Shown: one piece after another, positions 12,920 to 31,147 of the stretch
Layout of the letters: the number at the start of each line of letters is the position of its first letter
Position numbering within the stretch: position 1 is the first letter of the stretch
Virus record (IMG/VR): IMGVR_UViG_2671180864_000006
Direction: 5' to 3' (one strand)
DNA length: 31,147 bases
From: a virus
Lineage: Duplodnaviria > Heunggongvirae > Uroviricota > Caudoviricetes
The notes under the pieces: generated by a model
Database searches by the model: none
Told to the model about the DNA's origin: nothing
Seen by the model: only the letters and a program-made list of their open reading frames with translations
Position numbers and translations under genes: made by a program

Positions 12920-12933
12920 CTCAAGGGGGATTA

Positions 12934-13119: not shown

Positions 13120-13159
13120 AGGTAAGTCACACTAGGTGTTTTTTAGTTGATTTTATAAA

Positions 13160-13267
13160 TGCACAATAGTGCACAAATTTGCACAATTTTTTTGAACGAC
13201 TTTTTGCCCTTCCGGCCCGCGTGGCGGCTGGATCCGTCAAGGATCCGTGCATGCACAAAAAAACGCG
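13160..13267. repeat. Helically phased TGCACAA repeats and GGATCCGT direct repeat in the cos-proximal region
   Basis: TGCACAA at 13160, 13170 and 13180 (10-bp period) and again near 13250; GGATCCGT twice (13230-13237, 13241-13248); a GCGTGGCGG motif at about 13219-13227 resembles the start of P2/186-type cohesive ends. Confidence 0.5.
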
Positions 13268-13560
13268 TTTTTTCTGCGCGCAGGTGACGGGGGAACAGCC
13301 CGCGTTTCAGGGGGTAAATAGCATTCCCTGAACGATGTCGCAGAGATACAACAGAATGGCTGTATTTCTCACGCTGAGCGTGAAAAAGACGTGAGGGCTT
13401 TTGATTTGATGGGGTGAAAGGTAAGGCCGTCAAAATCGCACTGAGACGGCGAGAATATGCAGTCAACGAGGTGGGATTGCGTAAGAGTCTGACTGTCGAT
13501 GATGGCAATCAGCAGGAAAGCGTCGTGAAATTATCTGACTGATACAGGAGCTGGAGAGTC

Positions 13561-13583
13561 GGGGCATAAATTTTTTATGCCCC
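13561..13583 (-). terminator. Hairpin downstream of portal gene Q (terminator-like)
   Basis: Near-perfect palindrome GGGGCATAAA-TTT-TTTATGCCCC about 28 nt after the Q stop; no separate U-tract follows, so terminator function is uncertain. Confidence 0.35.
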
Positions 13584-13610
13584 GGCGAAGCAGCAGACAA
13601 GCGAAGCGCG

Positions 13611-14657: not shown

Positions 14658-16408
14658 CAGAACTCCATAACCGTGAAACGCTCGTTTTCTCCTTCGCCGC
14701 CAATCGGTTCGTTAATGACAGCAAGCATGGTTGCCCACGCAAGGTCGCCGTGGCTGATCCCCCTCGCGCGGTCCGTTTCGTAAGTGATAAAACCGCCCGG
14801 TGTTTTCACCTTACGCACGGCGTTAAAGGCCGCAACCAGCTCGCGTTCGGCGCGATCGTATTCCCACCGCCCGGCACGCATTATTTGCAGCATTTTCAGT
14901 ACCAGCGACCGTTTTGATGACAGCGTGAAGGTGTAAGGGATGGCGGCGGGAAAAAACCGTTTCACTATCTGATAGACGGCATCCCCGTGCCCGCCCGTCG
15001 CATCAATGCCGATGTGTTCCACGTTGTAGCGATACGTGAACTCTTCAATAACTCTGGCCTGCTCTTCAAATTCCAGCCCCTGAACGCGTCGCGTCTCCAC
15101 CGTTCTGAAACGACCACCAGGAACAGCCGGAGGAACCACCACGGACACAGCGCCGCTGTCGCCGTTACCACTGCTGCCGTTTGCGTCATACCCAATCCAT
15201 ACCGGACGATTCCCCATCGGGCGGGGGGCAAAGGGTTTCCAGTCTTTCCAGTCGTCGTATCCGTCAACACCGCAGCCAATCAGGATATTCAGGTTAAATG
15301 CCGATTCCCCTTCGCGGACAAACTCACACATATAGAGATTGCGGAACTCGTCTTCGGTGTTTTCATCACGAATTTCATCAATATCGGTGTGTTTCCAGCC
15401 GTGATTAACCACATCTTCCAGCGTGACAATTTGCCGCCACGTCCGGTCAGGGCAGATAAGCCCGTTATGCAGCGTTTTCCAGTCCACAGAAAAACGCTGG
15501 CGTTTATGCGCGGCCTTTTTCTCGTTCCAGCGGTCGCCGTTCCAGTAGGCGTATGCCTCGTGCGTTTCGGTGGATGGCGTGGAGAAGCAGGTGCGCCGCA
15601 GTCCGCTGAGGGTTGCCATAGCGCCAGCCACCTTGCGCAGTTCAGCAAAGCGACTGACCCAGAAAAATTCATCAAAATAAAAATTGCCCGTGTAAGATTG
15701 CGCCGTCGCAGCAGAAGTGCCGAGAAAATGCATCTCTGCGCCGTTGGAGAGGATGATTTTATCGCCCCCTTTCAGCTCCACATCGACTTCAGCCGCGGCC
15801 TTCTGAATAATGCTTTTAAACTGGAACGCCTGACGACGCGACGCAGACAAAAAAATCTGGTTACGCTGGTAAGGTTGTGCCACATCGTCACGCAGCGCCA
15901 TCAGCAGTGCTTCCTGTGCAAAATACCAGGTCGCCCCAATCTGTCGGGATTTCAGGATCATCCTGTTACGTATCCCGGCTTCCCTGCAAAGCGTCAGGGA
16001 GTCAAACCAGCCCCGCTGATGCCACTCCAGCCTGCTGATGATTTTTTCCCGCAGTGCGGCAATCTGTTCCGGCGTGAAATGATTTTTGAGTTTTTTCGCC
16101 CGGCCTTTCTTTCCTGTGGCCGTCGCATCCGGCTGGCCATCATGCAGTTTTTTAAGCTGCCGGGTCAGCAGGTCTATTTCCTTAAAGTCACCACCTGTTT
16201 TATTCTGTTTTTCAGTAAGCTGGATGAGGCGCGCATCGATGGACTGCGTGACACGCTGCACGGGTGGCGTTTCATCCCACTGGTCGCGTTTTTTCCACGC
16301 ATAAATCGTGTTCGGGTTTATTCCCATCAGACGTGATATTTCTGCGGGCGGATAACCCTGCCAGTAAAGTTGCCGCGCACGCTGGCGCACAAAAGCGTCC
16401 TGAATCAT
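14657..16408 (-). CDS. P: Terminase large (ATPase) subunit, P2 gpP-like
   Basis: 583-aa ORF of P2 gpP size, divergent from the O-N-M-L operon. Confidence 0.88.
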   Translation of the reverse strand: MIQDAFVRQRARQLYWQGYPPAEISRLMGINPNTIYAWKKRDQWDETPPVQRVTQSIDARLIQLTEKQNKTGGDFKEIDLLTRQLKKLHDGQPDATATGKKGRAKKLKNHFTPEQIAALREKIISRLEWHQRGWFDSLTLCREAGIRNRMILKSRQIGATWYFAQEALLMALRDDVAQPYQRNQIFLSASRRQAFQFKSIIQKAAAEVDVELKGGDKIILSNGAEMHFLGTSAATAQSYTGNFYFDEFFWVSRFAELRKVAGAMATLSGLRRTCFSTPSTETHEAYAYWNGDRWNEKKAAHKRQRFSVDWKTLHNGLICPDRTWRQIVTLEDVVNHGWKHTDIDEIRDENTEDEFRNLYMCEFVREGESAFNLNILIGCGVDGYDDWKDWKPFAPRPMGNRPVWIGYDANGSSGNGDSGAVSVVVPPAVPGGRFRTVETRRVQGLEFEEQARVIEEFTYRYNVEHIGIDATGGHGDAVYQIVKRFFPAAIPYTFTLSSKRSLVLKMLQIMRAGRWEYDRAERELVAAFNAVRKVKTPGGFITYETDRARGISHGDLAWATMLAVINEPIGGEGENERFTVMEF

Positions 16409-16562
16409 TGCTCCCCCTGAGTAATTACAGGAAGATTACCCGCGCGCGAAACCGTTCTCCTTAACCCCCTGTTCTGGCCGTTTTCTTACAACAAAAGCCC
16501 TTTGTATCAGCCTGTTACGCTTTGCCATCATGACTGAAGAACCAGTCAGAGGGGCAAAAACT

Positions 16563-17399
16563 ATGGCTAATGAAAAAAAGACATCCCGCAAAAAGTTTCG
16601 CGTGGCTGTCTCCGGATCAACTGTTGATGGCCGTGAAATCAGTCCGGTGCATCTGCGTGAAGCCGCCGAGAACTTCAACCCGGATGTTTACGCTGCCCGC
16701 GTGAACGTTGAGCACTATCTCTCGCCATGCCCGTCAAGCGAATTTTCCGCAATGGGCGATGTCACCGCACTGAGTACGGAAGACATTACGGAAGGTCCGC
16801 TGGCCGGACGTACTGCGCTGTATGCAGAAATCGAACCGACCGAGCGCATGAAGCAGCTTGTCGCGGACGGCAAGAAAATCTATTCCAGTATCGAACTGCA
16901 CCCGCAGTTCTCCGTTAACGGGCGCGCCTATCTGGTCGGGCTGGCGATGACCGACACCCCGGCAAGCCTGGGCACTGAGCGCCTGAAATTCACGGCACAG
17001 CAACGTCAGGCGGTGATGACGTTCAACAGTATCCAGGGTGAAGCACCGCTTATCTCCGAAGCCATCGAGTCTGAAATCATCGAAATGGCAGAACAACGCC
17101 AGGAAGAAGGCACCCAGTGGTTTAACCGCGTAATGGGGATTATTGGTCGTGGCCGCAAAGCGGATGACGCCAGTTTCTCCCGTATTCAGGAAGCGGTGGA
17201 AAGCGTCGCAACGTCACAGGCCGACATTATCGACCGTTTTAATGCGCTGGAAACACGCCATCAGCAGGACAGCCAGAAAATCACTTTACTGACCACGGAG
17301 CTGACAGCACTGAAGGAAAAACTGCGCACGCAGGACGGCGATCCGCAGAACCGGTTCACCGCAACGGGCGCAGCCTCCGACCAGCTGGCTGACTTCTGA
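16563..17399 (+). CDS. O: Capsid scaffolding protein, P2 gpO-like
   Basis: 278 aa from the ATG at 16563 (MANEKKTSRKKF...), preceded by a GAGGGG RBS; position and size match gpO. Confidence 0.8.
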   Translation: MANEKKTSRKKFRVAVSGSTVDGREISPVHLREAAENFNPDVYAARVNVEHYLSPCPSSEFSAMGDVTALSTEDITEGPLAGRTALYAEIEPTERMKQLVADGKKIYSSIELHPQFSVNGRAYLVGLAMTDTPASLGTERLKFTAQQRQAVMTFNSIQGEAPLISEAIESEIIEMAEQRQEEGTQWFNRVMGIIGRGRKADDASFSRIQEAVESVATSQADIIDRFNALETRHQQDSQKITLLTTELTALKEKLRTQDGDPQNRFTATGAASDQLADF

Positions 17400-17422
17400 T
17401 AAGACAAAGGAGCAAATTTTTT

Positions 17423-18475
17423 ATGAATCTGGTGATGTCAGATATTACCCGCAACAAGCTGGGTTGCTATATGGCGCAGCAGGCGTCGCTTAACAATATC
17501 CCGGTTTCTGCACTGGTATCGCGATTTACCGTGGAACCTGCGGTGCAGCAACGTTTTGAAAACGCCTCAAAGGATAGCACCGAACTTACAAAAAAAATTA
17601 ACGTGATCGGCGTGACCGACCAGAAAGGCGAAAAAATCCTCCTGGACACCACAGGACCGATTGCACGCACAAATACCAGTTATGACGGAACAAAACGCCG
17701 TAACCCGAATAACGTGGTTGATCTGAAAAACCGCAAATACCAGTGCGAACAGGTGAACTACGACACGTTTATTTCGTATCCGCAGCTTGATGCCTGGTCG
17801 GCACACAGCGATTTTCAGTCCCGCATCAGCGCACAGATTGCCCGACAGGTGGCACTTGACCGCATCATGATCGGTTTCAACGGCACATCTCACGCGGATG
17901 AGTCCAACTTCAGCACCAACAAGCTGCTTCAGGACGTTAACGTGGGGTGGCTGGAGCACATCAGAACCAATGCCAGCGAGCGCGTAATGAATGACGTGAC
18001 GCTGACTTCCCGCAACATGGACAACACCGTGGCGCACGCGGGTAAATACGCGAACCCTGATGCACTGGTACAGGACGCGCGCTCATCTCTGCTGGATGAA
18101 TGGCACAAGGAAGCTGACGACCTCGTGGTGATTATGGGGCGCAACCTGTTTAACTCGCTGCGTCTGCCAGTGCTGAACAGCATCAGCGGCCAGAATCCCA
18201 ATGCGGAATTACTTGCCGGGCAGCTCATCCTGTCATCGCGCACCATTGGCGGGCTGGGTGTGTTCCTTGCACCGTTCTTCCCGGATGCAACGATGCTGAT
18301 CACCTCATTCAACAACCTGTCGATTTACTGGCAGAAAGGTTCAATGCGTCGTCTGATGAAAGACGAACCGGAATACAACCGCATCGCCACCTACCAGTCC
18401 ATCAATGACGCTTATGTCGTTGAAGACTATGGCAAGTGCGCGATGGTCACTGGCCTGAAGTTCGCCGACAGCTAA
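17423..18475 (+). CDS. N: Major capsid protein, P2 gpN-like
   Basis: 350-aa ORF with AAGGAG RBS; position and size match gpN. Confidence 0.85.
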   Translation: MNLVMSDITRNKLGCYMAQQASLNNIPVSALVSRFTVEPAVQQRFENASKDSTELTKKINVIGVTDQKGEKILLDTTGPIARTNTSYDGTKRRNPNNVVDLKNRKYQCEQVNYDTFISYPQLDAWSAHSDFQSRISAQIARQVALDRIMIGFNGTSHADESNFSTNKLLQDVNVGWLEHIRTNASERVMNDVTLTSRNMDNTVAHAGKYANPDALVQDARSSLLDEWHKEADDLVVIMGRNLFNSLRLPVLNSISGQNPNAELLAGQLILSSRTIGGLGVFLAPFFPDATMLITSFNNLSIYWQKGSMRRLMKDEPEYNRIATYQSINDAYVVEDYGKCAMVTGLKFADS

Positions 18476-18520
18476 TCAACTCACGGCGGGCATCATGCCC
18501 GCCTGTAACGGAGAGAAAAA

Positions 18521-19321
18521 ATGATTACTCCTGCACAGCAACACTGGCAGAACGTGATGGCACAGCGCGCAGGCCGGGCGAATGAAGGTGTGGACCACGC
18601 CGCGCGTACCGCGCATGAAGAGGTGCTGTATCGTCTGCGTCTGGCACAGGCCCGGCTTAAGGGCGTACAGGCCAGAAGCGCGAAAGCCGACATCAAAAAA
18701 GCGTTGTTGCCGGACTTTTCCGGCTGGATTGAGGGAACGCTGGAGGCTGACGGCGGGCAACAGGACGAAGTGATTGCCACGCTGATGGTGTGGGCGATTG
18801 ACTGCGGCGATCTTCCGCTTGCGCTGCGTATTGGTGCGTATGCGGTCCGTCACAACCTCATCATGCCGGATAACTTTGGCCGTACTGCTGCCACAGTGCT
18901 GACCGAAGAAATCTGCAATCCGGTACTGACGCAGGCCGGGACGGATGCCGACGCGGATTTGTCCGTCTTTATCGAACCACTGGACACACTTTGGGAAATT
19001 GTCGCCAACCAGGATATGCCGGACGAAGTGCGCGCCAAATTATGCAAGGCGTGCGCCTTTGCCCGCCGTGGCCTGAGCGATGCGGACAGCATGGCCTCAT
19101 CACTGAAGCTGCTGCGCGAAGCGATGCATCTGAACCAGAACGCAGGTGTGAAACGCGAGATTGCAACCCTTTCCCGCGCCCTGAAAAAAGCCGATTCCGC
19201 AGCCGCACCAGAAGACGCCAGCGCACAGCAGGCGCAGGACGAAAGCAGCGAAAGTAAAAAGACAACGCGGAAGCCTGCAACACGAAAAACCACCGCGACG
19301 CAGAAGGCGAAGCGCGGTTAA
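18521..19321 (+). CDS. M: Terminase small (endonuclease) subunit, P2 gpM-like
   Basis: 266-aa ORF following N; basic C-terminal tail. Confidence 0.8.
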   Translation: MITPAQQHWQNVMAQRAGRANEGVDHAARTAHEEVLYRLRLAQARLKGVQARSAKADIKKALLPDFSGWIEGTLEADGGQQDEVIATLMVWAIDCGDLPLALRIGAYAVRHNLIMPDNFGRTAATVLTEEICNPVLTQAGTDADADLSVFIEPLDTLWEIVANQDMPDEVRAKLCKACAFARRGLSDADSMASSLKLLREAMHLNQNAGVKREIATLSRALKKADSAAAPEDASAQQAQDESSESKKTTRKPATRKTTATQKAKRG

Positions 19322-19422
19322 CGACTGACCCCGTCAGCGGGCGGCGTGCGCGGTGTTCCGGTTTGGCTCCGTGACCGTTTACACCGCGCACCCACCGCCC
19401 GATTTTTTCAGGAGTGAACCCC

Positions 19423-19917
19423 ATGAGTATGGTTGCCAGAACTGAACCCGGACCCGCAGAGGACGACATCACCGACACCGAAGATGGCGATACCCGTATT
19501 TCAGCGGGTGCATTCTGGCCGGATATTGTGCTGCGCGAGCTGCGTCTGGCGGTACGACTGCCGGGCCGCGTGACCACCTCCCGCCTGCTGCATACCGCCA
19601 CCGGGGCCGTGGCACACGTTACCCGCGAGCTGGAAGCATGGCAGCAGGAACAGCAGGCGGCTGGCCATCAGACGCTGGCCGATGTTCCGGCACCTGTAAT
19701 TAACGGAGAAAGCGTCAATCTCTGGCACTGGCGCAATGCTGTTTATACCGCCACACGCGCCCTGATTCTGGAGCGTTACCGCGATGCGGACACAACGGAC
19801 AAGGGCGACCGCCGGGCGGACGCACTGGATATACAGACATCGGATTTGTGGCGCGATGTGAGCTGGGCCATCTCTGACATTCTGTGCCGCCCGCGAATCT
19901 TTGCGGAGTTGTGCTGA
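19423..19917 (+). CDS. L: Head completion/stabilisation protein, P2 gpL-like
   Basis: Similar to P2 gpL as recalled (LADVPA..., ERYRD..., LWRD... blocks); ATG at 19423 follows a CAGGAG RBS. Confidence 0.8.
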   Translation: MSMVARTEPGPAEDDITDTEDGDTRISAGAFWPDIVLRELRLAVRLPGRVTTSRLLHTATGAVAHVTRELEAWQQEQQAAGHQTLADVPAPVINGESVNLWHWRNAVYTATRALILERYRDADTTDKGDRRADALDIQTSDLWRDVSWAISDILCRPRIFAELC

Positions 19918-20114
19918 TGAAAGTGAAGACACTGGAAGGCGACACCGTGGATTCGCTCTGTTTCCGGTACTACGGCACGACGCAGGGCGTCACCGAAAAG
20001 GTGCTGGATGCCAACCCCGGACTCTGCCGACAGGTATTTCTGGAAGCCGGACAGGAGGTGGAAATGCCGGAGCCGGAGAAGAAAAAACAACGAGAGATGA
20101 TACAGCTATGGTAA
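19917..20114 (+). CDS. X: Tail protein X, P2 gpX-like
   Basis: 65 aa from MKVKTLEGDT; similar to P2 gpX (YYG..G, ANPGL); start overlaps the L stop. Confidence 0.8.
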   Translation: MKVKTLEGDTVDSLCFRYYGTTQGVTEKVLDANPGLCRQVFLEAGQEVEMPEPEKKKQREMIQLW

Positions 20115-20410
20115 CAGGTTTTTTTCAGCGGGTGAGTGACTGGATCACCTTCTGGGCATCAGTCACAGCCACCACAATAGGCGTGATGACCATCAGTGAA
20201 AAAATCGCCCTTGCCGGGTTGTTACTCGGTTCTCTGTCTGCATTACATGCCTGGCGACATCGCCGCCTGATGGAAACCGCCATGCAGCGTCGCAATGAAC
20301 TCATCGCCAGTATCCTGGCGCAGTCAGACGCACGGCCACTTCACGACAGTGAGCGTCAGGCTCTGAACATTCTGCGGGATAACGATACACATGATAAAGC
20401 TGCCCGTTAA
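20108..20410 (+). CDS. Putative holin
   Basis: 100-aa ORF with two hydrophobic helices and a charged C-terminus, immediately upstream of the endolysin. Confidence 0.6.
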   Translation: MVTGFFQRVSDWITFWASVTATTIGVMTISEKIALAGLLLGSLSALHAWRHRRLMETAMQRRNELIASILAQSDARPLHDSERQALNILRDNDTHDKAAR

Positions 20411-20939
20411 ACGTTACGCCGTAGCCGCCATTGTGGCGCTGGGGTTCTCCATTGCCCCTCACAAACTCCGGACCAGCCCGGAAGCGCAAATCCGCATTGC
20501 CACATGGGAGGACTGTCGCGCAACGCCTTACCGGGATATTGCCGGGGTAATGACCGTGGGGTGCGGCTCGACCGGGCATGTGGAAAATCGTCTGTACACC
20601 GAAACGGAAGTCGCCGGGCGCTGGGTTAATGATATGCAACATGCAGAAAACTGCATAAATCAGAACTTCAGCGGCAACGCCATGCCACAGTCCGCGTTTG
20701 AGGCAATGACAGATGCCGCCTTTAATCTTGGATGCAGAAATCTTATGTGGTTCAGGGATAAGAACCGTAACTACCACCGCACCACTATCTGGAAACATGC
20801 ACAGGCGCACAACTGGCCTGACATGTGCAACAGACTGACTGACTTCGTGAACAGCGGCGGCGAACGCTCACAGGGACTGGTTAACCGTCGTACTGATTTT
20901 CGTGCATGGTGCTTACGTGACACCGGAGGCCAGTCATGA
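20391..20939 (+). CDS. Endolysin, likely signal-anchor-release lysozyme
   Basis: 182-aa ORF with an N-terminal hydrophobic segment (YAVAAIVALGFSIA) followed by a lysozyme-like region (TPYRDIAGVMTVGCGSTGH) resembling P21-type SAR endolysins, from memory. Confidence 0.7.
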   Translation: MIKLPVKRYAVAAIVALGFSIAPHKLRTSPEAQIRIATWEDCRATPYRDIAGVMTVGCGSTGHVENRLYTETEVAGRWVNDMQHAENCINQNFSGNAMPQSAFEAMTDAAFNLGCRNLMWFRDKNRNYHRTTIWKHAQAHNWPDMCNRLTDFVNSGGERSQGLVNRRTDFRAWCLRDTGGQS

Positions 20940-21409
20940 AAGTGCGTTACATCCTGATGATGGCACTGACCGTCCTCACGCTGCTGACCATAACACTCTG
21001 GCAGACATTCAGACTGGGGCAGGAAGACGGACACAACCGTTATACACAGGCGCAACTGGACGATTACAGCCGGACCCTGAAAGAGGCCGGCACCATCATC
21101 AGCACCGCATCCGGTGTACTGCGTGACGTCATGACAGCGCGCCAGAACCGACAACAGGAAGGGGAAATCCGACGTGAACAGCTACGCAACGATATCACGA
21201 CAGATGCATGTGCCCGCGCTGTTCCTGACGCTCGCTTTACTGAGCGGTTGCACCAGCACGCAGAACGCGTCCGCGCCGCCGCCGTCGTTCCGTTTCATCC
21301 CGGAAGGGCTGACCGCCCCCGTACTTCCCCCGCCGTTTCCGGTGACGCCATCATGGGGAAACATCGGGATATGGAGCGACAGCCTCATGGACGCACTGGA
21401 AACCTGTAA
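20936..21409 (+). CDS. Inner-membrane spanin (Rz/LysB-like)
   Basis: 157-aa ORF with an N-terminal TM helix (ILMMALTVLTLLTITLW); overlaps the endolysin stop. Confidence 0.6.
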   Translation: MKVRYILMMALTVLTLLTITLWQTFRLGQEDGHNRYTQAQLDDYSRTLKEAGTIISTASGVLRDVMTARQNRQQEGEIRREQLRNDITTDACARAVPDARFTERLHQHAERVRAAAVVPFHPGRADRPRTSPAVSGDAIMGKHRDMERQPHGRTGNL

Positions 21410-21494
21410 CGCCGATAAGCGGGCCATTGAATTACTGGAACAGCGCAGGCTGCAACGACTGAACAACGAGGACAACAACCATGCTGAAAACTGA
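21174..21494 (+). CDS. Outer-membrane lipoprotein spanin (Rz1/LysC-like), overlapping
   Basis: Lipoprotein signal with lipobox (LLSGC) and a Pro-rich mature region; starts in an alternate frame inside the i-spanin gene and extends past it. Confidence 0.6.
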   Translation: MNSYATISRQMHVPALFLTLALLSGCTSTQNASAPPPSFRFIPEGLTAPVLPPPFPVTPSWGNIGIWSDSLMDALETCNADKRAIELLEQRRLQRLNNEDNNHAEN

Positions 21495-21948
21495 TTCCCT
21501 GCGTGAAGCCATGACCCGTTCATGCCGGTGGTGTCATGCCAACCCGGAAAAATTCACCATTTTCGTGGAGAGCGGCAACATTGAAACGACCGGAGAAACC
21601 CCATCGTTTGTTTACCGCTATCAGATAGTGATGTTTGTCATGGATTACGCCGGAGAGCTGGACGACCTCACGCTGCCGCTGCTGGCGTGGTTATCCGAAA
21701 ATCAGCCACAGTTGTTGCTCAATCCGGAGCGTAATCAGGACATCAAATTTTCCGCCGTTATCAATGACGATGACAGCGCCGATCTCCTGTTTACGCTCCC
21801 CCTGCGGGAACGCGTTCGCATCACGCGCAGCAGTCAGGGCACACCGCAGGCAGAACACCTGCCGGAGCCAAAACCCCGCCTGCCCTCTTCCGAAGGCGAC
21901 TGGTCGCATGTATTCCAGGATGTGACGTGGGGGGAAAGCGATGGATAA
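21481..21948 (+). CDS. R: Tail completion protein, P2 gpR-like
   Basis: 155-aa ORF matching gpR size, in the conserved position after the lysis genes. Confidence 0.75.
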   Translation: MLKTDSLREAMTRSCRWCHANPEKFTIFVESGNIETTGETPSFVYRYQIVMFVMDYAGELDDLTLPLLAWLSENQPQLLLNPERNQDIKFSAVINDDDSADLLFTLPLRERVRITRSSQGTPQAEHLPEPKPRLPSSEGDWSHVFQDVTWGESDG

Positions 21949-22576
21949 GGCATTCACCCGCGTGGATGAAACCTTTGAGGCTATCCGCGACAGCCTGAAT
22001 CAGCAGGCCATTAATAACATCGCCAGAAAGCTGGCACAGGATTTACGCCGCGCCCAGCAGGCGCGTATCCGGTCACAGAAAGCGCCGGACGGGACCGCAT
22101 GGACACCACGCAGACGCCGCGTAACCCGGATACAGGAGCGCATTCGCTTTATCTGGAATAACGAAGCACGCACGCTGAAAAACTGGCATCACGACACGGG
22201 GAAATACGGGCGAACCATCACCGGGTGGGATGAGGATAAAAACAATATCCGCACGTTTTACCGGGATGACATCGACCGTTTTCTGGAAATACGCACCCGG
22301 CGCATCAACCAGGACAGCACCAGGCGCGTCTCCATGTTCGTAAAACTGCGCACCGCCCGCTACCTGAAAGCCCGTGCAGATGCTTCCGGTGTGACGGTGG
22401 GTTACAGCGGCGTGGCCGCACGTATTGCACGCGTTCATCAGTTCGGTGAGCGCGATCAGGTTGCGCCGGGCATTTTCACCGATTACCCGGTACGTGAGCT
22501 GCTGGGTATCAGCCAGGCAGATGAGCGCCTGATTTATAACACGGTGCTGGGCCGGATTGCGGAGGCTGTACGATGA
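21941..22576 (+). CDS. S: Tail completion/virion morphogenesis protein, P2 gpS-like
   Basis: 211-aa ORF overlapping the R stop; positional homologue of gpS. Confidence 0.7.
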   Translation: MDKAFTRVDETFEAIRDSLNQQAINNIARKLAQDLRRAQQARIRSQKAPDGTAWTPRRRRVTRIQERIRFIWNNEARTLKNWHHDTGKYGRTITGWDEDKNNIRTFYRDDIDRFLEIRTRRINQDSTRRVSMFVKLRTARYLKARADASGVTVGYSGVAARIARVHQFGERDQVAPGIFTDYPVRELLGISQADERLIYNTVLGRIAEAVR

Positions 22577-23154
22577 GCGCAGAACTCATGCGACTGCTGA
22601 GCAATATCATCCGCACCGGGATCATCTCTGAAGTTGATGAGGAATCCTGGTGCGTGCGCGTTCGCAGCGGCGAACTGGAAACAGGCTGGCTGCGCTGGAA
22701 CACCACGCGCGCGGGAGACTTCAACGTGTGGTTTCCGCCATCACCAGGCGAACAGGTGGCAATTGCCTGCATCGGCGGCAACCCGGAAACCGCCATGATA
22801 ATCGGCAGCCTGTGGAGTGATGCCATTCCGGCACCCGGCAAAAGCCTGAAAGAAATCGTGGTCAGCGCGCCGGACGGCGCGGTGTTCCGCTACGACGCGG
22901 ACGCAGGCGCACTGAGCGCAAGCGGCATGAAAACGGCCACTTTGCAGGCATCCATCAGCGTGACACTGAACACGCCTGTCGTGGAATGCACAGACCTTCT
23001 GAGAACAGCGACGCTTGACGTCACAAAAGGGGGAACGATGAGCGGCAATATCACGCACAGCGGCGGCGATTTCACCTCAAACGGCATCACAGTGCATACG
23101 CATAAGCACGGTGGCGTTAAAGGTGGCAGCGATTCGACAGGAGGCCCGCAGTGA
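22573..23154 (+). CDS. V: Baseplate spike protein, P2 gpV-like
   Basis: 193-aa ORF; position and size match gpV. Confidence 0.8.
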   Translation: MSAELMRLLSNIIRTGIISEVDEESWCVRVRSGELETGWLRWNTTRAGDFNVWFPPSPGEQVAIACIGGNPETAMIIGSLWSDAIPAPGKSLKEIVVSAPDGAVFRYDADAGALSASGMKTATLQASISVTLNTPVVECTDLLRTATLDVTKGGTMSGNITHSGGDFTSNGITVHTHKHGGVKGGSDSTGGPQ

Positions 23155-23501
23155 CAACCCGCTACACAGGAATGAACCCGGACGGGACGGGAAACCTGAA
23201 CGATATGGCGCACCTGAAACAGTCAGTCAGGGACATCCTGACCACCCCGCTGGCAAGCCGGGTTATGCGACGGGAATATGGCAGCCTTGTGCCTGATTTG
23301 ATTGACGAACCCATGAATAACACCACGCGTCTGCAATGCATGAGTGCTACCGTGATTGCACTGACACGATGGGAACCACGCATTGCCCTGAACGCCATCG
23401 ACGTTGTCTGGAAGGCAGGAGGCCACGCCGGGGTGACGCTGTCGGGCACTGTCATGCAGACCATGCAGAATGTTGAATTAACCATCACGCTGAGGGAGTA
23501 A
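23151..23501 (+). CDS. W: Baseplate wedge protein, P2 gpW-like
   Basis: 116-aa ORF matching gpW size; start overlaps the V stop. Confidence 0.8.
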   Translation: MTTRYTGMNPDGTGNLNDMAHLKQSVRDILTTPLASRVMRREYGSLVPDLIDEPMNNTTRLQCMSATVIALTRWEPRIALNAIDVVWKAGGHAGVTLSGTVMQTMQNVELTITLRE

Positions 23502-23504
23502 ATC

Positions 23505-24401
23505 ATGCCTGCCGTTGACCTTTCCCAGTTACCGGAACCCGCCATCATCGCGGAGCCTGACTTTGAGGCAATTCTGGCTGACACAAAGGCCATGATGATT
23601 GCAGCTTATCCCGCCGAACAGCGTGAAGTCGTCTCCGCCGCACTGGAACTGGAATCGGAACCCCTGAACGTTATCGCTCAAACCATGTCGTTTCGTGAAA
23701 TGCTGTTACGCCAGCGGGTCAATGAGGCCGCACGCGCCTGCATGTTGAGCCACAGCGCCGGAACAGACCTGGACAACCTCGCGGGCAATATGAACACAAA
23801 GCGCCTGGTTATCACTCCGGCAACGGATACCACCGACGTGGTGATGGAGAACGACACCTCGCTGAGACTGCGGGCGCAGCGGGCGTATGACGGCCTGAGT
23901 GTTGCAGGCCCGTCAGGCGCATACGAGTATTTTGCCCGCAGCGCCAGCGGTCTGGTGCGCGATGCGCGGGCCATCAGTCCGTCTCCGGCAAATGTGACGG
24001 TTTCCATCCTGTCCACTGAGGGCGACGGCACAGCAACGGAGGCGTTGCTTAATACCGTTCGCGCCGTTCTGAATGCAGAGGATACCCGCCCGGTGGCCGA
24101 CCGCCTGACCGTACAGAGTGCCAGAATCGTGACATGGCGGCTGAATGCAAAACTGTACTTTTACCCCGGTCCGGAATCCGAACCTATTCTGGCTGCGGCT
24201 GAATCGTCGTTCAGGAAGTGGCTGGCTGAGCAGGGGCTTATCGGTCAGGACGTGGCGTTGTCCGCCATTGCTGCCGCACTGCATGTGCACGGTGTGCAAC
24301 GCGTGGAGATAATCGAACCCACACAGAATATGGCCATCAGCGACATACAGGCGGCGCGCTGTGAGTCATTCACCATCAGCGAAGGTGGGCGTAATGAGTA
24401 A
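23505..24401 (+). CDS. J: Baseplate protein, P2 gpJ-like
   Basis: 298-aa ORF in the conserved V-W-J-I order. Confidence 0.85.
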   Translation: MPAVDLSQLPEPAIIAEPDFEAILADTKAMMIAAYPAEQREVVSAALELESEPLNVIAQTMSFREMLLRQRVNEAARACMLSHSAGTDLDNLAGNMNTKRLVITPATDTTDVVMENDTSLRLRAQRAYDGLSVAGPSGAYEYFARSASGLVRDARAISPSPANVTVSILSTEGDGTATEALLNTVRAVLNAEDTRPVADRLTVQSARIVTWRLNAKLYFYPGPESEPILAAAESSFRKWLAEQGLIGQDVALSAIAAALHVHGVQRVEIIEPTQNMAISDIQAARCESFTISEGGRNE

Positions 24402-24924
24402 TTCACTGTTACCACCATCAGCCAGCAATTTCATGCGTTGTGCCGAAGCCGTCGGAACACGCATTACAGACATTCCGGCAGACCTCAACACGCTGTGGTC
24501 GCCGGACACCTGCCCGGTGCATCTGCTGCCTTATCTCGCCTGGGCGTTTTCCGTTGACCGCTGGGATCGCAACTGGCCGGAAGAGACAAAGCGACAGGTG
24601 ATTCGTGATGCATGGCTGATACACCGACACAAAGGAACCATCAGCGCCCTGCGACGGGCCATTGAGCCGCTGGGATACCTCATTCGCGTGTCTGAGTGGT
24701 GGGAGTTCAACGGCGAACCCGGAACATTCAAGATTGATGTTGGCACGCTGGACAGTGGCGTGACGGAGGAAATGTATCTGGAAATGGAGCGGTTGATTGC
24801 TGATGCCCGCCCGGTCAGCCGCCACATGACAGGGCTGAATATCATTCAGGAGATTCAGGGAGATATTTTCGCGGCAGCAGCAACTTACGACGGTGAAGTC
24901 ATTACCATTTATCCGGACGATTAA
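24394..24924 (+). CDS. I: Baseplate/tail protein, P2 gpI-like
   Basis: 176 aa from the internal ATG at 24394 (MSNSLLPP...), overlapping the J stop. Confidence 0.8.
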   Translation: MSNSLLPPSASNFMRCAEAVGTRITDIPADLNTLWSPDTCPVHLLPYLAWAFSVDRWDRNWPEETKRQVIRDAWLIHRHKGTISALRRAIEPLGYLIRVSEWWEFNGEPGTFKIDVGTLDSGVTEEMYLEMERLIADARPVSRHMTGLNIIQEIQGDIFAAAATYDGEVITIYPDD

Positions 24925-24926
24925 GC

Positions 24927-26897
24927 ATGAGTACCACAACACGAAAATTTAAAACCATTATCACCGATACGGGTGCAAAAAAATTAGCGCAGGCAACCGC
25001 GCCAGATGGGAAACCTGTCCGCCTGACACATATGGCCGTGGGTGACGGCGGCGGTACTTTACCCACGCCAGACAGTAAGCAGACCCGTCTTGTGCATGAG
25101 GTGTGGCGACATACCGTTAATCGCGTCACCCTGGACGCAACACATCAGAACCACATTATTGCGGAGCTGGTTATTCCTCCTGAAACGGGCGGATTCTGGA
25201 TCCGGGAAATTGGTGTGTTTGATGAGCACGGCGATTTGATCGCGGTAGGCAATACTGCCGAAAGTTACAAGCCAACCGTTGCCGAAGGATCCGGACGTGC
25301 ACAAACATTTCGCACCATTCTGACCGTATCCAGCACTGCCACTGTGGCGCTTACCGTGGATAACACCATGGTGATGGCCACAGTGAATTACGTGGATGAC
25401 AAACTGAAAGAGCATGAACAGTCACGACGTCACCCGGACGCCTCGCTGACCGCAAAAGGCCTTGTCCAGCTCAGCAACGCCACCAACAGCACGTCTGAAA
25501 CGCTGGCAGCGACACCAAAAGCCGTTAAGGCAGTAATGGATGAAACGAACAAGAAAGCCCCATTAAACAGCCCGGCACTGACCGGAACGCCAACAACACC
25601 AACTGCGCGACAGGGAACGAATAATACCCAAATCGCAAGCACGGCTTTCGTTATGGCTGCGATTGCCGCACTTGTAGACTCTTCGCCTGATGCACTGAAC
25701 ACACTGAACGAGCTGGCGGCGGCGCTGGGCAACGACCCGAATTTTGCGACCACCATGACTAACGCGCTTGCGGGTAAGCAACCGAAAGATGCCACTCTGA
25801 CGGCGCTGGCGGGGCTTGCTACTGCGGCAGACAGGTTTCCGTATTTTACGGGGAATGATGTCGCCAGCCTGGCAACCCTGACAAAAGTCGGGCGGGATAT
25901 TCTTGCGAAATCGACCGTTGCCGCCGTTATCGAATACCTCGGTTTACAGGAAACGGTAAATCAGGCTTCTGGCGCATTACAGAAAAACCAGAACGGCGCA
26001 GATATTCCGGGGAAAGATACCTTCACCAAAAATATTGGTGCCTGCCGCGCATATAGCTCATGGCTGAATATTGGTGGCGATAGTCAGGTCTGGACAACCG
26101 CGCAATTTATTTCGTGGCTGGAGAGTCAGGGAGCATTTAACCATCCTTACTGGATGTGCAAAGGCTCATGGGCTTATGCAAATAATAAGGTCATTACAGA
26201 TACAGGTTGCGGAAATATTTGTCTTGCAGGTGCTGTGGTGGAAGTTATTGGCACTCGCGGCGCAATGACCATACGCGTTACCACGCCGAGCACGTCCAGC
26301 GGTGGCGGAATTACTAACGCTCAATTCACTTATATTAATCATGGTGATGCTTACGCTCCTGGCTGGCGACGAGACTACAACACGAAAAATCAACAACCTG
26401 CATTTGCTTTAGGGCAAACAGGAAGCACTGTCGGAAATGATAAAGCTGTTGGCTGGAACTGGAATAGCGGGGTCTATAACGCAAACATTGGTGGCGCATC
26501 GACATTAATCCTCCACTTCAATATGAATACGGGGAGCTGCCCTGCTGTACAGTTCCGCGTGAATTACAGGAACGGCGGTATTTTTTATCGTTCAGCGCGT
26601 GATGGTTATGGCTTTGAAGCTGACTGGTCAGAGTTTTACACCACAACCCGCAAACCCTCTGCGGGAGATGTTGGTGCATATACGCAGGCAGAATGTAACT
26701 CAAGGTTTATTACAGGTATTCGCCTTGGTGGTCTGTTATCTGTTCAGACATGGAATGGTCCCGGATGGTCTGACAGGTCAGGTTATGTTGTTACCGGTTC
26801 CGTTAACTCAAACAGAGATGAACTAATTGATACAACTCAGGCAAGGCCAATTCAGTATTGCATTAATGGGACGTGGTATAACGCGGGGAGTATTTAA
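24927..26897 (+). CDS. H: Tail fibre protein, P2 gpH-like, with a currently joined variable C-terminal module
   Basis: 656-aa ORF whose N-terminal region is of the P2 gpH type; the C-terminal part downstream of an internal crossover site (25927-25952) resembles the other variable cassettes in this window. Confidence 0.88.
   Translation: MSTTTRKFKTIITDTGAKKLAQATAPDGKPVRLTHMAVGDGGGTLPTPDSKQTRLVHEVWRHTVNRVTLDATHQNHIIAELVIPPETGGFWIREIGVFDEHGDLIAVGNTAESYKPTVAEGSGRAQTFRTILTVSSTATVALTVDNTMVMATVNYVDDKLKEHEQSRRHPDASLTAKGLVQLSNATNSTSETLAATPKAVKAVMDETNKKAPLNSPALTGTPTTPTARQGTNNTQIASTAFVMAAIAALVDSSPDALNTLNELAAALGNDPNFATTMTNALAGKQPKDATLTALAGLATAADRFPYFTGNDVASLATLTKVGRDILAKSTVAAVIEYLGLQETVNQASGALQKNQNGADIPGKDTFTKNIGACRAYSSWLNIGGDSQVWTTAQFISWLESQGAFNHPYWMCKGSWAYANNKVITDTGCGNICLAGAVVEVIGTRGAMTIRVTTPSTSSGGGITNAQFTYINHGDAYAPGWRRDYNTKNQQPAFALGQTGSTVGNDKAVGWNWNSGVYNANIGGASTLILHFNMNTGSCPAVQFRVNYRNGGIFYRSARDGYGFEADWSEFYTTTRKPSAGDVGAYTQAECNSRFITGIRLGGLLSVQTWNGPGWSDRSGYVVTGSVNSNRDELIDTTQARPIQYCINGTWYNAGSI
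25927..25952. promoter_or_regulatory. Crossover site A (gix/pix-like) inside H
   Basis: TTATCGAATACCTCGGTTTACAGGAA, 23/26 identical to the Mu gixL sequence as recalled; encodes IEYLGLQE at the constant/variable junction. Confidence 0.6.
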
Positions 26898-26899
26898 CG

Positions 26900-27433
26900 A
26901 TGATGCACTTAAAAAACATTTCTGCTGGTAATCCTGAAACAAAAGAGCAATACCAGCTAACGAAACAATTTAACATCAAATGGCTTTATACAGAGGATGG
27001 GAAAAACTGGTATGAGGAACAAAAGAACTTTCAGCCTGATACGTTGAAAATGGTCTATGACCACAACGGCGTTATTATTTGTATTGAAAAGGATGTTTCA
27101 GCAATTAATCCGGAAGGCGCAAGCGTCGTTGAGGTTCCTGATATTACAGCAAATCGCCGGGCTGATATTTCAGGTAAATGGATGTTCAAAGATGGCGTAG
27201 TGATAAAGCGAACTTATACCGGGGAAGAGCAGAGGCAACAAGCGGAAAATGAAAAGCAAAGCCTGCTACAGCTCGTCAGGGATAAAACCCAGCTATGGGA
27301 CTCACAGCTACGGCTGGGCATTATTTCCGACGAGAATAAACAAAAATTAACCGAGTGGATGCTCTATGCGCAGAAGGTCGAATCCACAGACACCTCCAGC
27401 CTGCCAGTAACGTTTCCCGAACAACCAGAATGA
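26900..27433 (+). CDS. G: Tail fibre assembly protein, P2 gpG-like
   Basis: 177-aa ORF; close paralogue of the 29029-29562 ORF. Confidence 0.85.
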   Translation: MMHLKNISAGNPETKEQYQLTKQFNIKWLYTEDGKNWYEEQKNFQPDTLKMVYDHNGVIICIEKDVSAINPEGASVVEVPDITANRRADISGKWMFKDGVVIKRTYTGEEQRQQAENEKQSLLQLVRDKTQLWDSQLRLGIISDENKQKLTEWMLYAQKVESTDTSSLPVTFPEQPE

Positions 27434-27436
27434 AAC

Positions 27437-27463
27437 AAGGCCCGATATCGGGCCTTAATTTTT
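27437..27463 (+). terminator. Rho-independent terminator after G
   Basis: Palindrome AAGGCCCGATATCGGGCCTT followed by AATTTTT. Confidence 0.55.
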
Positions 27464-27629
27464 ACTCAGGCTTTTGTGGCCATTCTGGCTTTGCCGTATC
27501 CACACGGCTGACCAGAACACTGTAGCGTTCCCATGCTTCCAGTCGTGTGCGTTCCTCGTCCGTCGCCATATTCAGCCTGACAGCGCGTTCCAGCGGCTGG
27601 ATGACTGATTCAGCTTCGGTCGACGTCCG
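27456..27629 (-). pseudogene. 3' remnant of a convergent tail-fibre assembly gene
   Basis: Identical to the 3' end of the minus-strand assembly gene at 29591-29747; ends at a junction with invertase sequence at about 27629/27630. Confidence 0.7.
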
Positions 27630-28061
27630 CCTGTGCGCCCCCGTGCGCGTGCTGCCGCCAGTCCGGCCAGTGTACGTTCAACAATTAATTCACGTTCCAT
27701 TTCAGCCAGGGCACCCATCACGTGGAAGAAAAAACGCCCCAAGAGAAGATGTATCTATGCTGTCGGTCAGACTGCGAAAATTAATTCCTCGCTCCCGTAG
27801 TTCCCCGACGAGAGAAATCAGATGTTTCATGCTTCGCCCGAGGCGATCCAGTTTCCAGACAACCAGCGTGTCACCTTTTTGAAGGCGCTTTAAAGCACGT
27901 TTTAATCCAGGTCGGCCTGTCCTTGTTCCGCTTAATTTATCTTCAAATATTTGTTCATATCCTGCACAAACAAGAGCGTTTCGTTGCAGGTCTGTATTCT
28001 GGTCATTTGTTGATACCCTTACATAGCCAATCAGCACGCTGAATCTCCCGTCCAAAAGCAC
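27630..28061 (-). pseudogene. Serine DNA invertase (Gin/Pin/Cin/Hin family), truncated and frameshifted
   Basis: N-terminal catalytic domain intact (GYVRVSTNDQNTDLQRNAL...) but the frame breaks after DSIDTSS at about 27715 (apparent 2-bp deletion); the alternate frame continues as [22 protein letters not shown]...GGRRPKL and then fuses to the assembly-gene remnant, so the C-terminal HTH domain is missing. Confidence 0.8.
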
Positions 28062-28091
28062 AAATCATGCCATGCAGGCCAGAAACCGCCA

Positions 28092-28117
28092 TTATCTAAA
28101 ACCTCGGTTTACGAGAA
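28092..28117. promoter_or_regulatory. Crossover site B (gix/pix-like)
   Basis: TTATCTAAAACCTCGGTTTACGAGAA, 23/26 identical to the Mu gixL sequence as recalled; same orientation and reading-frame relation as site A, but with TAA in the first half. Confidence 0.6.
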
Positions 28118-29026
28118 CTCGGCACAAGCGGGGAGAAAATACCGTTACTCAGTACAGCGAATACCTGGACTAATCGACAAACATTCAGCGGTGGCCTTTC
28201 TGGTGAACTATCCGGCAATGCTTCTACAGCTGCAAAATTAAAAACTGCCAGGAAAATAAGCAATGTGGCTTTTGATGGTTCCTCCGATATCACATTAAAA
28301 GCAAGTCATGTTGGTGCGTTTGCCTTAGGGAAAACAGGAAGCACCGTTGCGAATGATAAAGCAGTTGGATGGAACTGGAGTAGCGGAGCCTATAACGCAA
28401 CTATTAGTGGTGCATCAACGTTAATTATTCATTTTTATATGGGAGAAGGAAGTTGTCCTGCAGCTCAGTTTCGGATTAATTATAAAAATGGCGGTATTTT
28501 TTATCGTTCAGCCCGTGATGGTTATGGTTTTGAAGCCGACTGGTCCGAATTTTACACCACCAGAAAACCTTCAGCAGGAGATGTTGGTGCACTGCCGTTA
28601 TCTGGTGGTCAACTGAATGGTGCACTGGGTATCGGAACATCCAGTGCTCTTGGCGGTAATTCGATTGTATTGGGTGATAATGACACGGGCTTTAAACAAA
28701 AAGGCGATGGTAATCTGGATGTTTATGCTAATAACGTCCATGTTATGCGCTTTGTCTCCGGAAGCATTCAAAGTAATAAAACCATAAATATTACGGGACG
28801 TGTTAATCCCTCGGATTACGGTAACTTTGATTCCCGCTATGTGAGAGATGTCAGACTTGGCACACGAGTTGTTTAGACCATGAAGAAAGGCGTGATGTAT
28901 GAAAAATCAGGCCATGTAATCACGGGGCTTGGTATTATCGGTGAAGTCGATGGTGATGATCCGGCAGTATTCAGACCAATACAAAAGTTAATTAACGGAA
29001 CATGGTATAACGTATCGCAGGTATAA
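28100..29026 (+). pseudogene. Promoterless alternative tail-fibre C-terminal cassette with an in-frame amber codon
   Basis: Frame is open from site B (NLGLRELG...) and related to the H C-terminus (KAVGWNW, GIFYRSARDGYGFEADWSEFYTT); TAG at 28874-28876 interrupts it, and the same frame continues to a conserved fibre C-terminus ([11 protein letters not shown]) ending at 29026. Confidence 0.7.
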
Positions 29027-29028
29027 TC

Positions 29029-29562
29029 ATGCAGCATTTAAAAAACATTGTCGCAGGTAATCCAAAAACCGTTGAACAATACCAGCTAACAAAGAATTTT
29101 GATGTTATCTGGTTATGGTCCGAAGATGGAAAAAATTGGCATGAGGAATTAAAAAACTTTCAGGAGGATACAATAAAACTGGCTTACACAGTTGAGGGAA
29201 TAATTATTGCTATAGACAAGGATGTATCAGCAATTAATCCAGAAGGTTTAAGTGTCGTTGAGTTGCCTGATATTACAGCAAATCGCCGGGCTGATATTTC
29301 GGGCAACTGGATGTTCAAAGATGGTGCGGTGATAAAGCGAACTTATACCGAGGAAGAGCAAAGGCAACAAGCGGAAAATGAAAAGCAGAGCCTGCTGCAG
29401 CTCGTCAGGGATAAAACCCAGCTGTGGGACTCTCAGCTACAGCTGGGCATCATTTCCGATGAGAATAAACAAAAATTAACCGAGTGGATGCTCTATGCGC
29501 AGAAGGTCGAATCCACAGACACCTCCAGCCTGCCAGTAACGTTTCCCGAACAACCAGAATGA
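29029..29562 (+). CDS. Tail fibre assembly protein for the second cassette
   Basis: 177-aa paralogue of gpG; C-terminal third is near-identical at the DNA level to G. Confidence 0.8.
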
Positions 29563-29565
29563 AAC

Positions 29566-29592
29566 AAGGCCCGATATCGGGCCTTAATTTTT
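29566..29592 (+). terminator. Hairpin terminator between convergent assembly genes
   Basis: Same AAGGCCCGATATCGGGCCTT palindrome plus AATTTTT as at 27437-27463. Confidence 0.5.
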
Positions 29593-30118
29593 ACTCAGGC
29601 TTTTGTGGCCATTCTGGCTTTGCCGTATCCACACGGCTGACCAGAACACTGTAGCGTTCCCATGCTTCCAGTCGTGTGCGTTCCTCGTCCGTCGCCATAT
29701 TCAGCCTGACAGCGCGTTCCAGCGGCTGGATGACTGATTCAGCTTCGGAAAGCAATGCGGCCTTTTGTGATTCGGCCTGTTGTTGCTGTTCGTCAGCCGT
29801 ATAAATCCGTTTAACCACAGCTCCGTCCTTAAACATCCACTTACCGGAATCATCAGCACGACGATTAGCTGTAATATCAGGAACCTCAACGACGCTATAA
29901 CCTTCAGGGTTAAGCGTGGAGGCATCTTTGGTGATGGCGACAATAATATTATTTGCATCGTAAACAATCTTTATTGTGTCTGGCTGAAAGTTCTTCACTT
30001 CCTCATACCAGTTTTTTCCGTCCTCAGAGTAAAGCCAGATGACTCCGTGCTTCTTTGTTAACTCATACTGCTCCACTGTTTTAGCATTACCTGCTTTTAT
30101 GTTCTTTAAGTGCATCAT
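29591..30118 (-). CDS. Tail fibre assembly protein for the third (inverted) cassette
   Basis: Minus-strand gpG/Tfa homologue starting [11 protein letters not shown]; the track's 11-aa N-terminal extension is probably spurious. Confidence 0.75.
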
Positions 30119-30119
30119 A

Positions 30120-31147
30120 TTAAATACTCGCCACATTATACCAAGTGCCATTTATATACTTTTGCACTGGCCTGTAATGAACGCCTGCAATATTATCGGC
30201 AGAGTTTTTTCCGGTATCCTGTACGTTAATCCCCGTCAGTACATAGCCTGACGGGCACTGAAAATTCCATGTTTGCCAGTTGTTCACTCCATAATATTGC
30301 TGTGAACCAAGTCGAACATCTTTCACATATCTGGAATCAAAATTGCCATAGTTGCCGGGAATAACTTGCGAGCCGCAAAGCCAGTTCCCGTTATTATCCA
30401 TGTACGCCTGACCATCGGTGCCATTGGCTGTCCTTGAGTTATTAATCATGTAGATGCCAAATTGCTTATTTCCCAGACCGCCAATCATAAATTTGCGGTC
30501 GGCATGGTCCTGACGGAGCAAAGCCTGAGCACCATCAGTGGATACCGCATTACGTCCCAAAATAACATTCTGGTCACGCATATGAATCCACATGCCGGTA
30601 CTACTGTTAATTGCAAAACGGTTTGCAAATATATCCCCTGTAACATCAAGACCATGCCCCATGCTTATCCGGCCAGTTCTGAGATTAAGCGTAAAGGGGC
30701 GTAGTGGCCCTATATTACCATTTTCCCCTTCATTCTCTCGTGTAGGGATGATATGCAGGCATTCTTCAGAACGACGAAAAATGGCACCAAAAGATGAATT
30801 AAATATCCTCAGTGCATTGACTGTCGATATTTTCACTTCACTGCTGAAAAGGGCTTCAACAAGAACAGACAAAGCATTCCATTTAAGATTCATCAGGTCT
30901 TTAGGCCGGGTGCCAATGATGCGGTGTCTCCATTTGAAATATTCATTGCCGTTGTTGCCTGTTTCAAACCACATGTAGGAATCGGTGTCTGCATCCGAAT
31001 TATTTTTAAACCCAATCTTTGCCCAGTCAGTATTTCGAATCCAGGCAAGGATTGAGTCGTTTTCAAAAGTAAGTCCACCGGACAACGTATCGCCATTTTT
31101 TTGCACGGCGTTACCAGCCTTGTTTACCGTTTCCTGTAAACCGAGGT
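30120..31147 (-). CDS. Third alternative tail-fibre C-terminal cassette, inverted orientation (partial; open frame leaves the window)
   Basis: Minus-strand ORF ending in a conserved fibre C-terminus ([11 protein letters not shown]); the frame stays open upstream through site C, encoding ...[21 protein letters not shown], the same junction peptide as in H. Confidence 0.75.
31131..31147. promoter_or_regulatory. Crossover site C (gix/pix-like), inverted relative to A and B, cut by the window end
   Basis: TTCCTGTAAACCGAGGT is the reverse complement of the right half of sites A and B. Confidence 0.55.

Follow-up and report, generated by a model that had tools for sequence, protein, structure and literature searches.

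The closest described relatives of the locus considered here are the G segment of phage Mu, inverted by Gin and found also in D108 and SfMu, and the C segment of P1 and P7, which is served by Cin. In these systems the crossover sites are 26-bp gix-type sequences at which the fibre is fused at the peptide LGL, and in the Mu G segment the variable fibre parts (Sv) and their assembly genes (U) are arranged as Sv-U / U'-Sv', and the invertase gene reads outward. Mu G(-) particles have Shigella sonnei and Citrobacter among their hosts, and invertases of the Gin/Hin/Cin/Pin family have their recombinational enhancer within the 5' portion of their own gene. A larger arrangement is the Min system of plasmid p15B, where a Gin-family invertase shuffles fibre C-termini via six gix-type sites in mixed orientation, with many intact cassettes. 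Here we analyse a 31,147-nucleotide stretch of caudoviral DNA (the window; IMG/VR record IMGVR_UViG_2671180864_000006), which is the whole of contig CXDC01000039.1 of assembly GCA_001258035.1 and carries, at its right end, the tail-fibre gene H of a P2-like prophage, three gix-type sites and three fibre cassettes. A preliminary description had read this arrangement as a host-range switch with more than two states. Judged against its relatives, what the locus carries is a standard switch of the Gin/Pin type, an invertible tail-fibre segment with two sites in a P88-like prophage, of a kind already known; the three-site layout is probably a chimera of scaffolding and gap closure, a reading to which we give a probability of roughly 0.8 and which includes an assembly history that we infer.

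The two-site switch of the P88-like prophage

Over positions 5914-24899 the window has 96.4% identity to phage P88, a member of the genus Xuanwuvirus (Peduoviridae), and Pfam matches were found to GPO, the P2 capsid protein, gpL, gpX, gpR, gpS, gpV, gpW, gpJ, gpI, gpU, gpE, the tail tube and sheath, gpD and GPA. The P2 structural genes are present in the P2 order, and the prophage is P88-like; its host is probably Shigella sonnei.

Sites were located by the 12-nucleotide core ACCTCGGTTTAC, which occurs exactly three times in the window, at 25936 (+), 28101 (+) and 31147 (-), against 0.12 occurrences expected by chance; a count of three was reached in 0 of 100 shuffles. With the annotated G-segment boundaries of Mu (TTATCCAAAACCTCGGTTTACAGGAA) as the reference for the full 26 nucleotides, all three sites align, as the preliminary description had proposed to check, and its claim of three 26-bp gix-like sites is borne out for sites A and B, while site C is present in only 17 of its 26 nucleotides (Table 1). 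The central dinucleotide is TC (positions 13-14) in each of them. Also as described before, LGL is read in frame across all three sites, each frame running on into a fibre C-terminus, so that the cassettes could be fused in frame to the same junction peptide, and an assembly gene with a Caudo_TAP match follows every cassette.

Two of these sites form the layout of a classical switch. Sites A (+) and C (-) are inverted relative to each other and flank the cassettes, and the constant part of the fibre (Hc) lies outside them and in frame; it extends to 25946, ending in ...VIEYLGL, and the variable cassette Sv1 follows. Site C is real and is the right site of the P88-like switch. The variable part encoded by Sv1 is identical to that of Mu S' at 314 of 319 amino acids, and a bidirectional terminator hairpin stands 3' of U1 (27437-27456). 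Sv1/U1 (25947-27433), the cassette expressed in this orientation, has 98% protein identity to Mu S'/U', the G(-) fibre. Protein identity of this order marks Sv1/U1 as the product of a very recent cassette exchange between Mu-like and P2-like phages.

Relatives of the locus were collected through the exact 656-amino-acid H protein: of the 226 blocks that list it, 24 were sampled, and 25 contigs were read from them. Every contig read except the present one has only Hc-site-Sv1-U1 / U3' (175 amino acids)-Sv3' (328 amino acids)-site, with two sites. After the right site, the relatives continue with an intact 195-amino-acid invertase (Resolvase and HTH_7 domains; 63 nucleotides past site C; 81% identical to Mu Gin) and then with gpU, T, E, tube, sheath and gpD; two of the contigs read carry insertion sequence (IS) insertions, and one stops before the invertase. 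The canonical relative L003 completes site C with TTATCTAAA (minus strand) and goes on into the 195-amino-acid invertase.

In two parts, up to 27619 and from 29461 to the contig end, the window matches these relatives with 100% identity. It contains only a 3'-truncated invertase remnant (27610-28061), the intact enzyme of 195 amino acids being known from the relatives; because relatives that are identical up to the contig end carry the invertase just past it, an invertase is expected there here too. We therefore predict that position 31147 is followed, almost certainly, by the nine missing site bases TTATCTAAA, a 63-nucleotide spacer and the invertase gene, and not by a second constant region. 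Such a region had been suggested earlier from the frame that stays open at site C, and it would imply head-to-head fibre operons or a second prophage in opposite orientation, with the part between sites B and C serving a fibre on the far side. The open frame at the contig end and the invertase-site-cassette order of 27610-29562, which mirrors a normal right end, would fit this arrangement, but 29461-31147 is 100% identical to relatives in which TTATCTAAA, the invertase, gpU and the tape-measure gene follow the site, and the contigs read with this H include 0 head-to-head layouts. We regard a second constant region as very improbable, and the suggestion is dropped.

The two-site switch also occurs in its other orientation. 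A homology search with the predicted product of exchange between A and C, an Hc+Sv3 fusion of 678 amino acids, returned an exact protein, P0121, in 228 blocks, complete genomes included, and CP065611 carries the stretch from site to site as its reverse complement between colinear flanks. Because the exact fusion exists and the segment is flipped in CP065611, both orientations occur naturally, and judging from block counts among public genomes they do so at about equal frequency (226 vs 228). Some complete genomes, namely L004 and L009 (both with 12444-13600 and 15404-16560) and L027 (10137-11293), carry IS3-family insertions in U1 and between Sv3'/Sv1' and the invertase of this prophage, which would part the crossover site from the enhancer and the invertase.

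In the mechanism that we propose, a Gin-family serine invertase encoded just past the contig end, whose activity in this isolate is presumed, would bind the inverted sites A (25927) and C (31131) and exchange strands at the central TC (positions 13-14), inverting the segment of ~3 kb between them. In the orientation of the window the phage would make Hc-Sv1 with the chaperone U1 (Mu S'/U'-like), and in the other orientation Hc-Sv3 with U3 (Mu S/U-like). By analogy with Gin, Hin, Cin and Pin, this swap of fibres would change the host range, and the reaction would be expected to depend on Fis and the enhancer and to favour inversion over deletion.

The 2129-bp insert and the origin of site B

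Relative to the canonical locus, the window has one insert of 2129 bp (27620-29748), bounded by an exact direct repeat of 288 bp (27332-27619 = 29461-29748). The insert is a patchwork of sequences that are each known from elsewhere. Up to 27619 the window has the letters of the P88-like locus (100%). The prophage's own invertase gene (codons ~58-143), read as the reverse complement of the L003 copy, accounts for 27610-27896 with 100% identity apart from position 27742. A locus in a lambdoid prophage of S. sonnei 53G (L014) matches 27870-29507 at 100%, and from 29461 to 31147 the sequence returns to the P88-like locus, also at 100%. The overlaps between neighbouring patches define three seams (Table 1). 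Site B thus lies within the patchwork and has the same letters as the site at position 9837 of L014. Sites A and B with their flanks agree letter for letter with two crossover sites listed for E. coli EC958 (Table 3 there), Phi4_5prime and Phi4_3prime respectively.

Table 1. Features of the fibre region (positions in the 31,147-nucleotide window)
Feature	Position	Strand	Basis and remarks
Tail-fibre gene H, 656 amino acids	24927-26897	+	Open reading frame; Pfam Phage_tail_fib and Phage_fiber_2
Crossover site A	25927-25952	+	TTATCGAATACCTCGGTTTACAGGAA; 24/26 to Mu gix; real, left site of the P88-like switch
Assembly gene U1, 177 amino acids	26900-27433	+	Caudo_TAP; 173/177 amino acids identical to Mu U'
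288-bp repeat, first copy	27332-27619		U 3' end, hairpin and last ~150 nucleotides of minus-strand U3'; 100% to L003
Seam 1, 10-nucleotide overlap TCAGCTTCGG	27610-27619		3' part of U3' meets codon ~143 of the reversed invertase
Reversed piece of the P88-like invertase gene	27620-27869	-	100% to reverse complement of L003 invertase apart from 27742
Truncated lambdoid invertase 5' part and upstream flank	27870-28061	-	GTG start at 28037; 100% to L014 from 27870
Seam 2, 27-nucleotide common block	27870-27896		Own reversed invertase to lambdoid invertase 5' part
Crossover site B	28092-28117	+	TTATCTAAAACCTCGGTTTACGAGAA; 23/26 to Mu gix; from the switch of the lambdoid prophage
Cassette Sv2, pseudogene, promoterless	28118-29028	+	In-frame TAG at 28874-28876
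Assembly gene U2, 177 amino acids	29029-29562	+	Base-by-base comparison; contains seam 3
Seam 3, 47-nucleotide common block	29461-29507		Identity passes from the lambdoid back to the P88-like locus, within U2
Assembly gene U3' of the silent cassette, 175 amino acids	29591-30118	-	Caudo_TAP; 158/175 amino acids identical to Mu U; 100% to L003
Silent variable cassette Sv3'	30120-31130	-	Reading frame shared with LGL at site C; 68% identity to Mu Sv
Crossover site C	31131-31147	-	17 of 26 nucleotides, rest cut by the contig end; 17/17 to Mu gix

The cassette that site B introduces is defective. Where an intact stf orthologue from E. coli has CAG, Sv2 has the TAG of 28874-28876. It is thus a nonsense mutant with an incomplete C-terminus: translation stops before the last ~50 amino acids, among them the conserved ...INGTWYN terminus. 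The intact orthologue has this cassette, expressed as ...VIEYLGLRELGTSGEK..., in the last part of its 934-amino-acid stf product. The 203-amino-acid open reading frame left upstream of the stop is indexed in 2308 blocks, so that the nonsense version is widespread; from this number the change of CAG to TAG appears to be fixed.

The record itself points to gap closure. In the public version of CXDC01000039.1, position 27742 (12816 in the locus L010) is an N, where the window shows an A; it takes the place of the TTG of the intact invertase (CCCCA-TTG-GAGAAG) and lies midway between seams 1 and 2. With the N swapped for a base, the result is an apparent deletion of 2 nucleotides and a frameshift, which is therefore not biological, and because of the N we regard the record as a gap-closed scaffold at this point. 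The 27742 allele had 0 matches in E. coli genomes and in the genome, viral and metagenome contig collections, but this absence is not independent evidence because it is expected once an N has been replaced. As the record is given, three sites are present, with site B inside a patchwork insert that carries an N in the public version.

A second record shows how the same two loci can become entangled. In CXCM01000025.1 (L024, GCA_001256555.1; a similar accession series), they are interleaved across N runs of 7, 11 and 320 (12983-12989, 14855-14865 and 15024-15343), which stand exactly where the sequence switches between lambdoid and P88-like, and this pattern shows that scaffolding can confuse these two modules. 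In GapFiller, a gap counts by default as closed at an overlap of at least 10 nucleotides (PMC3446322); the length of seam 1, 10 nucleotides, equals this default. Moreover, the contig stops exactly where the invertase gene should start, and part of the same gene appears reversed within the insert, as would be expected if an invertase contig had been attached to a lambdoid contig via 5' parts that are ~95% identical between the invertases of the two prophages. The most likely explanation for these observations is that one end of the lambdoid switch, comprising the truncated invertase, site B, nonsense Sv2 and U2, was placed into a collapsed U/hairpin/U' repeat of the P88-like locus, the reversed piece of the P88-like invertase being joined to the lambdoid piece via these similar 5' regions. 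The 2129-bp insert would then most likely be absent from the P88-like locus in the organism.

Searches for the layout elsewhere returned nothing that contradicts this explanation. None of the relatives with the same fibre gene that were read has the insert, and when 24900-31147 was compared by megablast with 5426 complete E. coli genomes, none of them had the full 6.2-kb layout, the best places covering ~4.2 kb and being canonical; the same query against phages found no place covering at least 80% of its length. A 33-mer across seam 1 had 0 matches in the 5426 complete E. coli genomes, the species-representative genomes, IMG/VR and the JGI metagenomes, and the open reading frames that cross a junction or the frameshift (111, 56 and 119 amino acids) had no exact match on record.

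We also considered whether the longer invertase remnant could be an ancestral form of the lambdoid gene. This was rejected because the lambdoid invertase of an E. coli prophage (L023) is truncated at the same point, the extra part in the window being P88-like invertase; the remnant is accordingly not an older lambdoid copy. Single-event models, worked through by hand, fared no better: inversion between 10-bp inverted microhomologies, tandem duplication, integration of a 2129-bp circle, Pin-mediated exchange between the loci and a crossover between invertase copies all leave an observed order that needs at least three independent junctions.

A third state of the switch would predict a fusion of Hc with Sv2. 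The only Hc-Sv2 fusion protein in the database is P0053 (594 amino acids), which comes from two contigs, L024 and L025 (FUDN01000043.1). It departs from the product predicted for exchange at the site at residues 298, 302 and 303, all of which are lambdoid alleles, so that the change of locus falls upstream of the site, in a 77-bp stretch of identity; L024 is, besides, the scaffold with the N runs. Hc+Sv2 as a real third state was rejected on these grounds, and the joining of the constant region to a cassette by exchange at the sites was not found for Sv2. Accordingly, the Gin/Pin-type host-range switch of the preliminary description stands for this P2-like prophage, and its extension to more than two states, which depends on site B and Sv2 within the patchwork insert, is not supported. 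The P0053 chimera has been deposited as 'phage tail protein [Shigella sonnei]' in NCBI and UniRef.

This reading must be weighed against one in which the insert is real, the P88-like prophage having captured site B, Sv2 and U2 from the lambdoid prophage by homologous and short-homology recombination to give a small system resembling Min of p15B. In its favour, each of the three sites is of good gix type, the sequence of site B has been proven to serve for crossover in EC958 Phi4, the frames are compatible and an intact invertase is expected just downstream; the remnant retains the gin-like first 200 nucleotides (97.5% identical to Mu gin), which form the established enhancer region of the family, and the short-identity seams and the microhomology junction fit recombination. 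Several observations also weigh against a chimera. The 27-nucleotide seam is shorter than the 29-nucleotide extension overlap of GapFiller, so that the default does not explain seam 2; the 10-nucleotide microhomology junction could equally be a product of short-homology illegitimate recombination; and the N could stem from a real inverted invertase repeat that was hard to assemble. Temperate phages have been documented to recombine with defective prophages at short identities (PMC3945230). Because the junction types are compatible with phage-prophage recombination, we keep a small share of the probability for a real insert. We nevertheless consider it unlikely, given that the insert contains an N, that all patches match their sources at 100% even though they meet at three or more separate junctions, that the layout is known from this record only and that a comparable record shows the same loci mis-scaffolded. 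In addition, a third-state fibre would lack its C-terminal ~50 amino acids through the nonsense codon in Sv2, and the only Hc-Sv2 proteins in the database, those of P0053, change locus upstream of the site and carry lambdoid alleles.

Were the insert real, A and B would be direct repeats with C inverted, and inversion could proceed between A and C, between B and C and then between A and B'. Enumeration by hand gives four isomers (X+Y+, X+Y-, Y-X- and Y+X-) with three fusions, Hc-Sv1 (twice), Hc-Sv3 and an Hc-Sv2 truncated by the TAG, that is, a minimal Min-like system with one dead state. A two-state Gin-type switch would then have become a three-site one by capture from a decaying prophage on the same chromosome, a snapshot of how multiple-inversion regions of the Min type get built.

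The lambdoid prophage and the left flank

If the three-site layout is a chimera, its second component is a prophage with a switch of its own. The lambdoid source locus adjoins trpEDCBA in complete genomes of the S. sonnei type, such as HE616528, and has the order methyltransferase, truncated invertase, site B, Sv2 (the 203-amino-acid open reading frame), an open reading frame of 48 amino acids, U2, U', stf (918 amino acids), lom and J. In the 10 places listed among 29 contigs read, the Sv2 open reading frame stands next to trpEDCBA, and copies that have decayed less also have the side tail fibre, lom and J. Insertions of IS1 and of IS3-family elements split the lambdoid prophage further in several complete genomes, and this breakage indicates that it is decaying.

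Assemblies differ in the orientation of the lambdoid invertible segment (9837-12760 in L014 vs 10997-13946 in L025), and of its own invertase the prophage has only a remnant of ~60 codons. In E. coli EC958, inversion of prophage segments was seen in PacBio reads, and the truncated invertase of Phi4 was proposed to be complemented in trans by the enzyme of a P2-like prophage (PMC4134206). The two orientations of the lambdoid segment together with its truncated invertase fit inversion in trans, as proposed there, and the enzyme of the P88-like prophage therefore probably flips the lambdoid segment too.

At the opposite end of the window, the contig begins with the host NlpC/P60 gene, btuD, btuE and btuC, after which comes the integrase gene, placing the prophage insertion next to btuC. 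Two small open reading frames lie between btuC and the integrase (4151-5278), one coiled-coil-like (3110-3664) and one without a Pfam match (3648-4148). Positions 10823-11782 encode a full ParM-type actin-like segregation protein (StbA_N and ParM), which is annotated in P88 as well; a protein of this type is unusual cargo for an integrating P2-like phage.

Comparison with known switches

The two-site switch adds little to the biology already described, since fibre switching in Mu, P1, e14, p15B and P2-like prophages is textbook knowledge or published, including action in trans on prophages whose invertase is truncated. What the window illustrates is a hazard: where one genome has two prophages with near-identical invertible fibre modules, scaffolding from short reads is easily misled, and the resulting chimeras, P0053 among them, are now in public protein databases. 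Scans for multi-site inversion systems should drop records with gaps or with patchwork identity to other loci of the same genome.

Among described systems, the segment comes nearest to the Mu group, with which it shares the gix-type sites, the fusion at LGL, the order of the cassettes and, in its relatives, the outward-reading invertase; its DNA is 90-94% identical to that of Mu, D108, SfMu and P7. Unlike Mu, the phage here is P2-like and not transposable, and its Hc (340 amino acids) is mostly unrelated to Mu Sc, with Sv3 just 68% identical to Mu Sv. In P88 and in prophage Phi1 of EC958, the same order is found, H-U / U'-Sv'-site-invertase followed by a convergent gpU-T-E-FII-FI operon, and in both the invertible segment and the invertase, set between H/G and this operon, stand in place of the Z/fun region of P2. 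The placement of the segment where P2 has H, G and Z/fun, as noted in the preliminary description, is thus correct but not unusual, and, by the order common to P88 and EC958 Phi1, an invertible fibre segment is normal for this P2-like branch; relative to these two, the cassette alleles differ and the extra 2.1 kb is found only in the window. The lambdoid prophages of EC958 (Phi4) and S. sonnei 53G differ further, as their invertase is truncated and lacks the HTH domain, so that an invertase acting in trans is needed, and their module is fused to an stf of ~918 amino acids near lom and J at another locus, not to a P2-type H. A likeness to Min of p15B would hold only if the three-site layout were real, and would then amount to three sites with one dead cassette.

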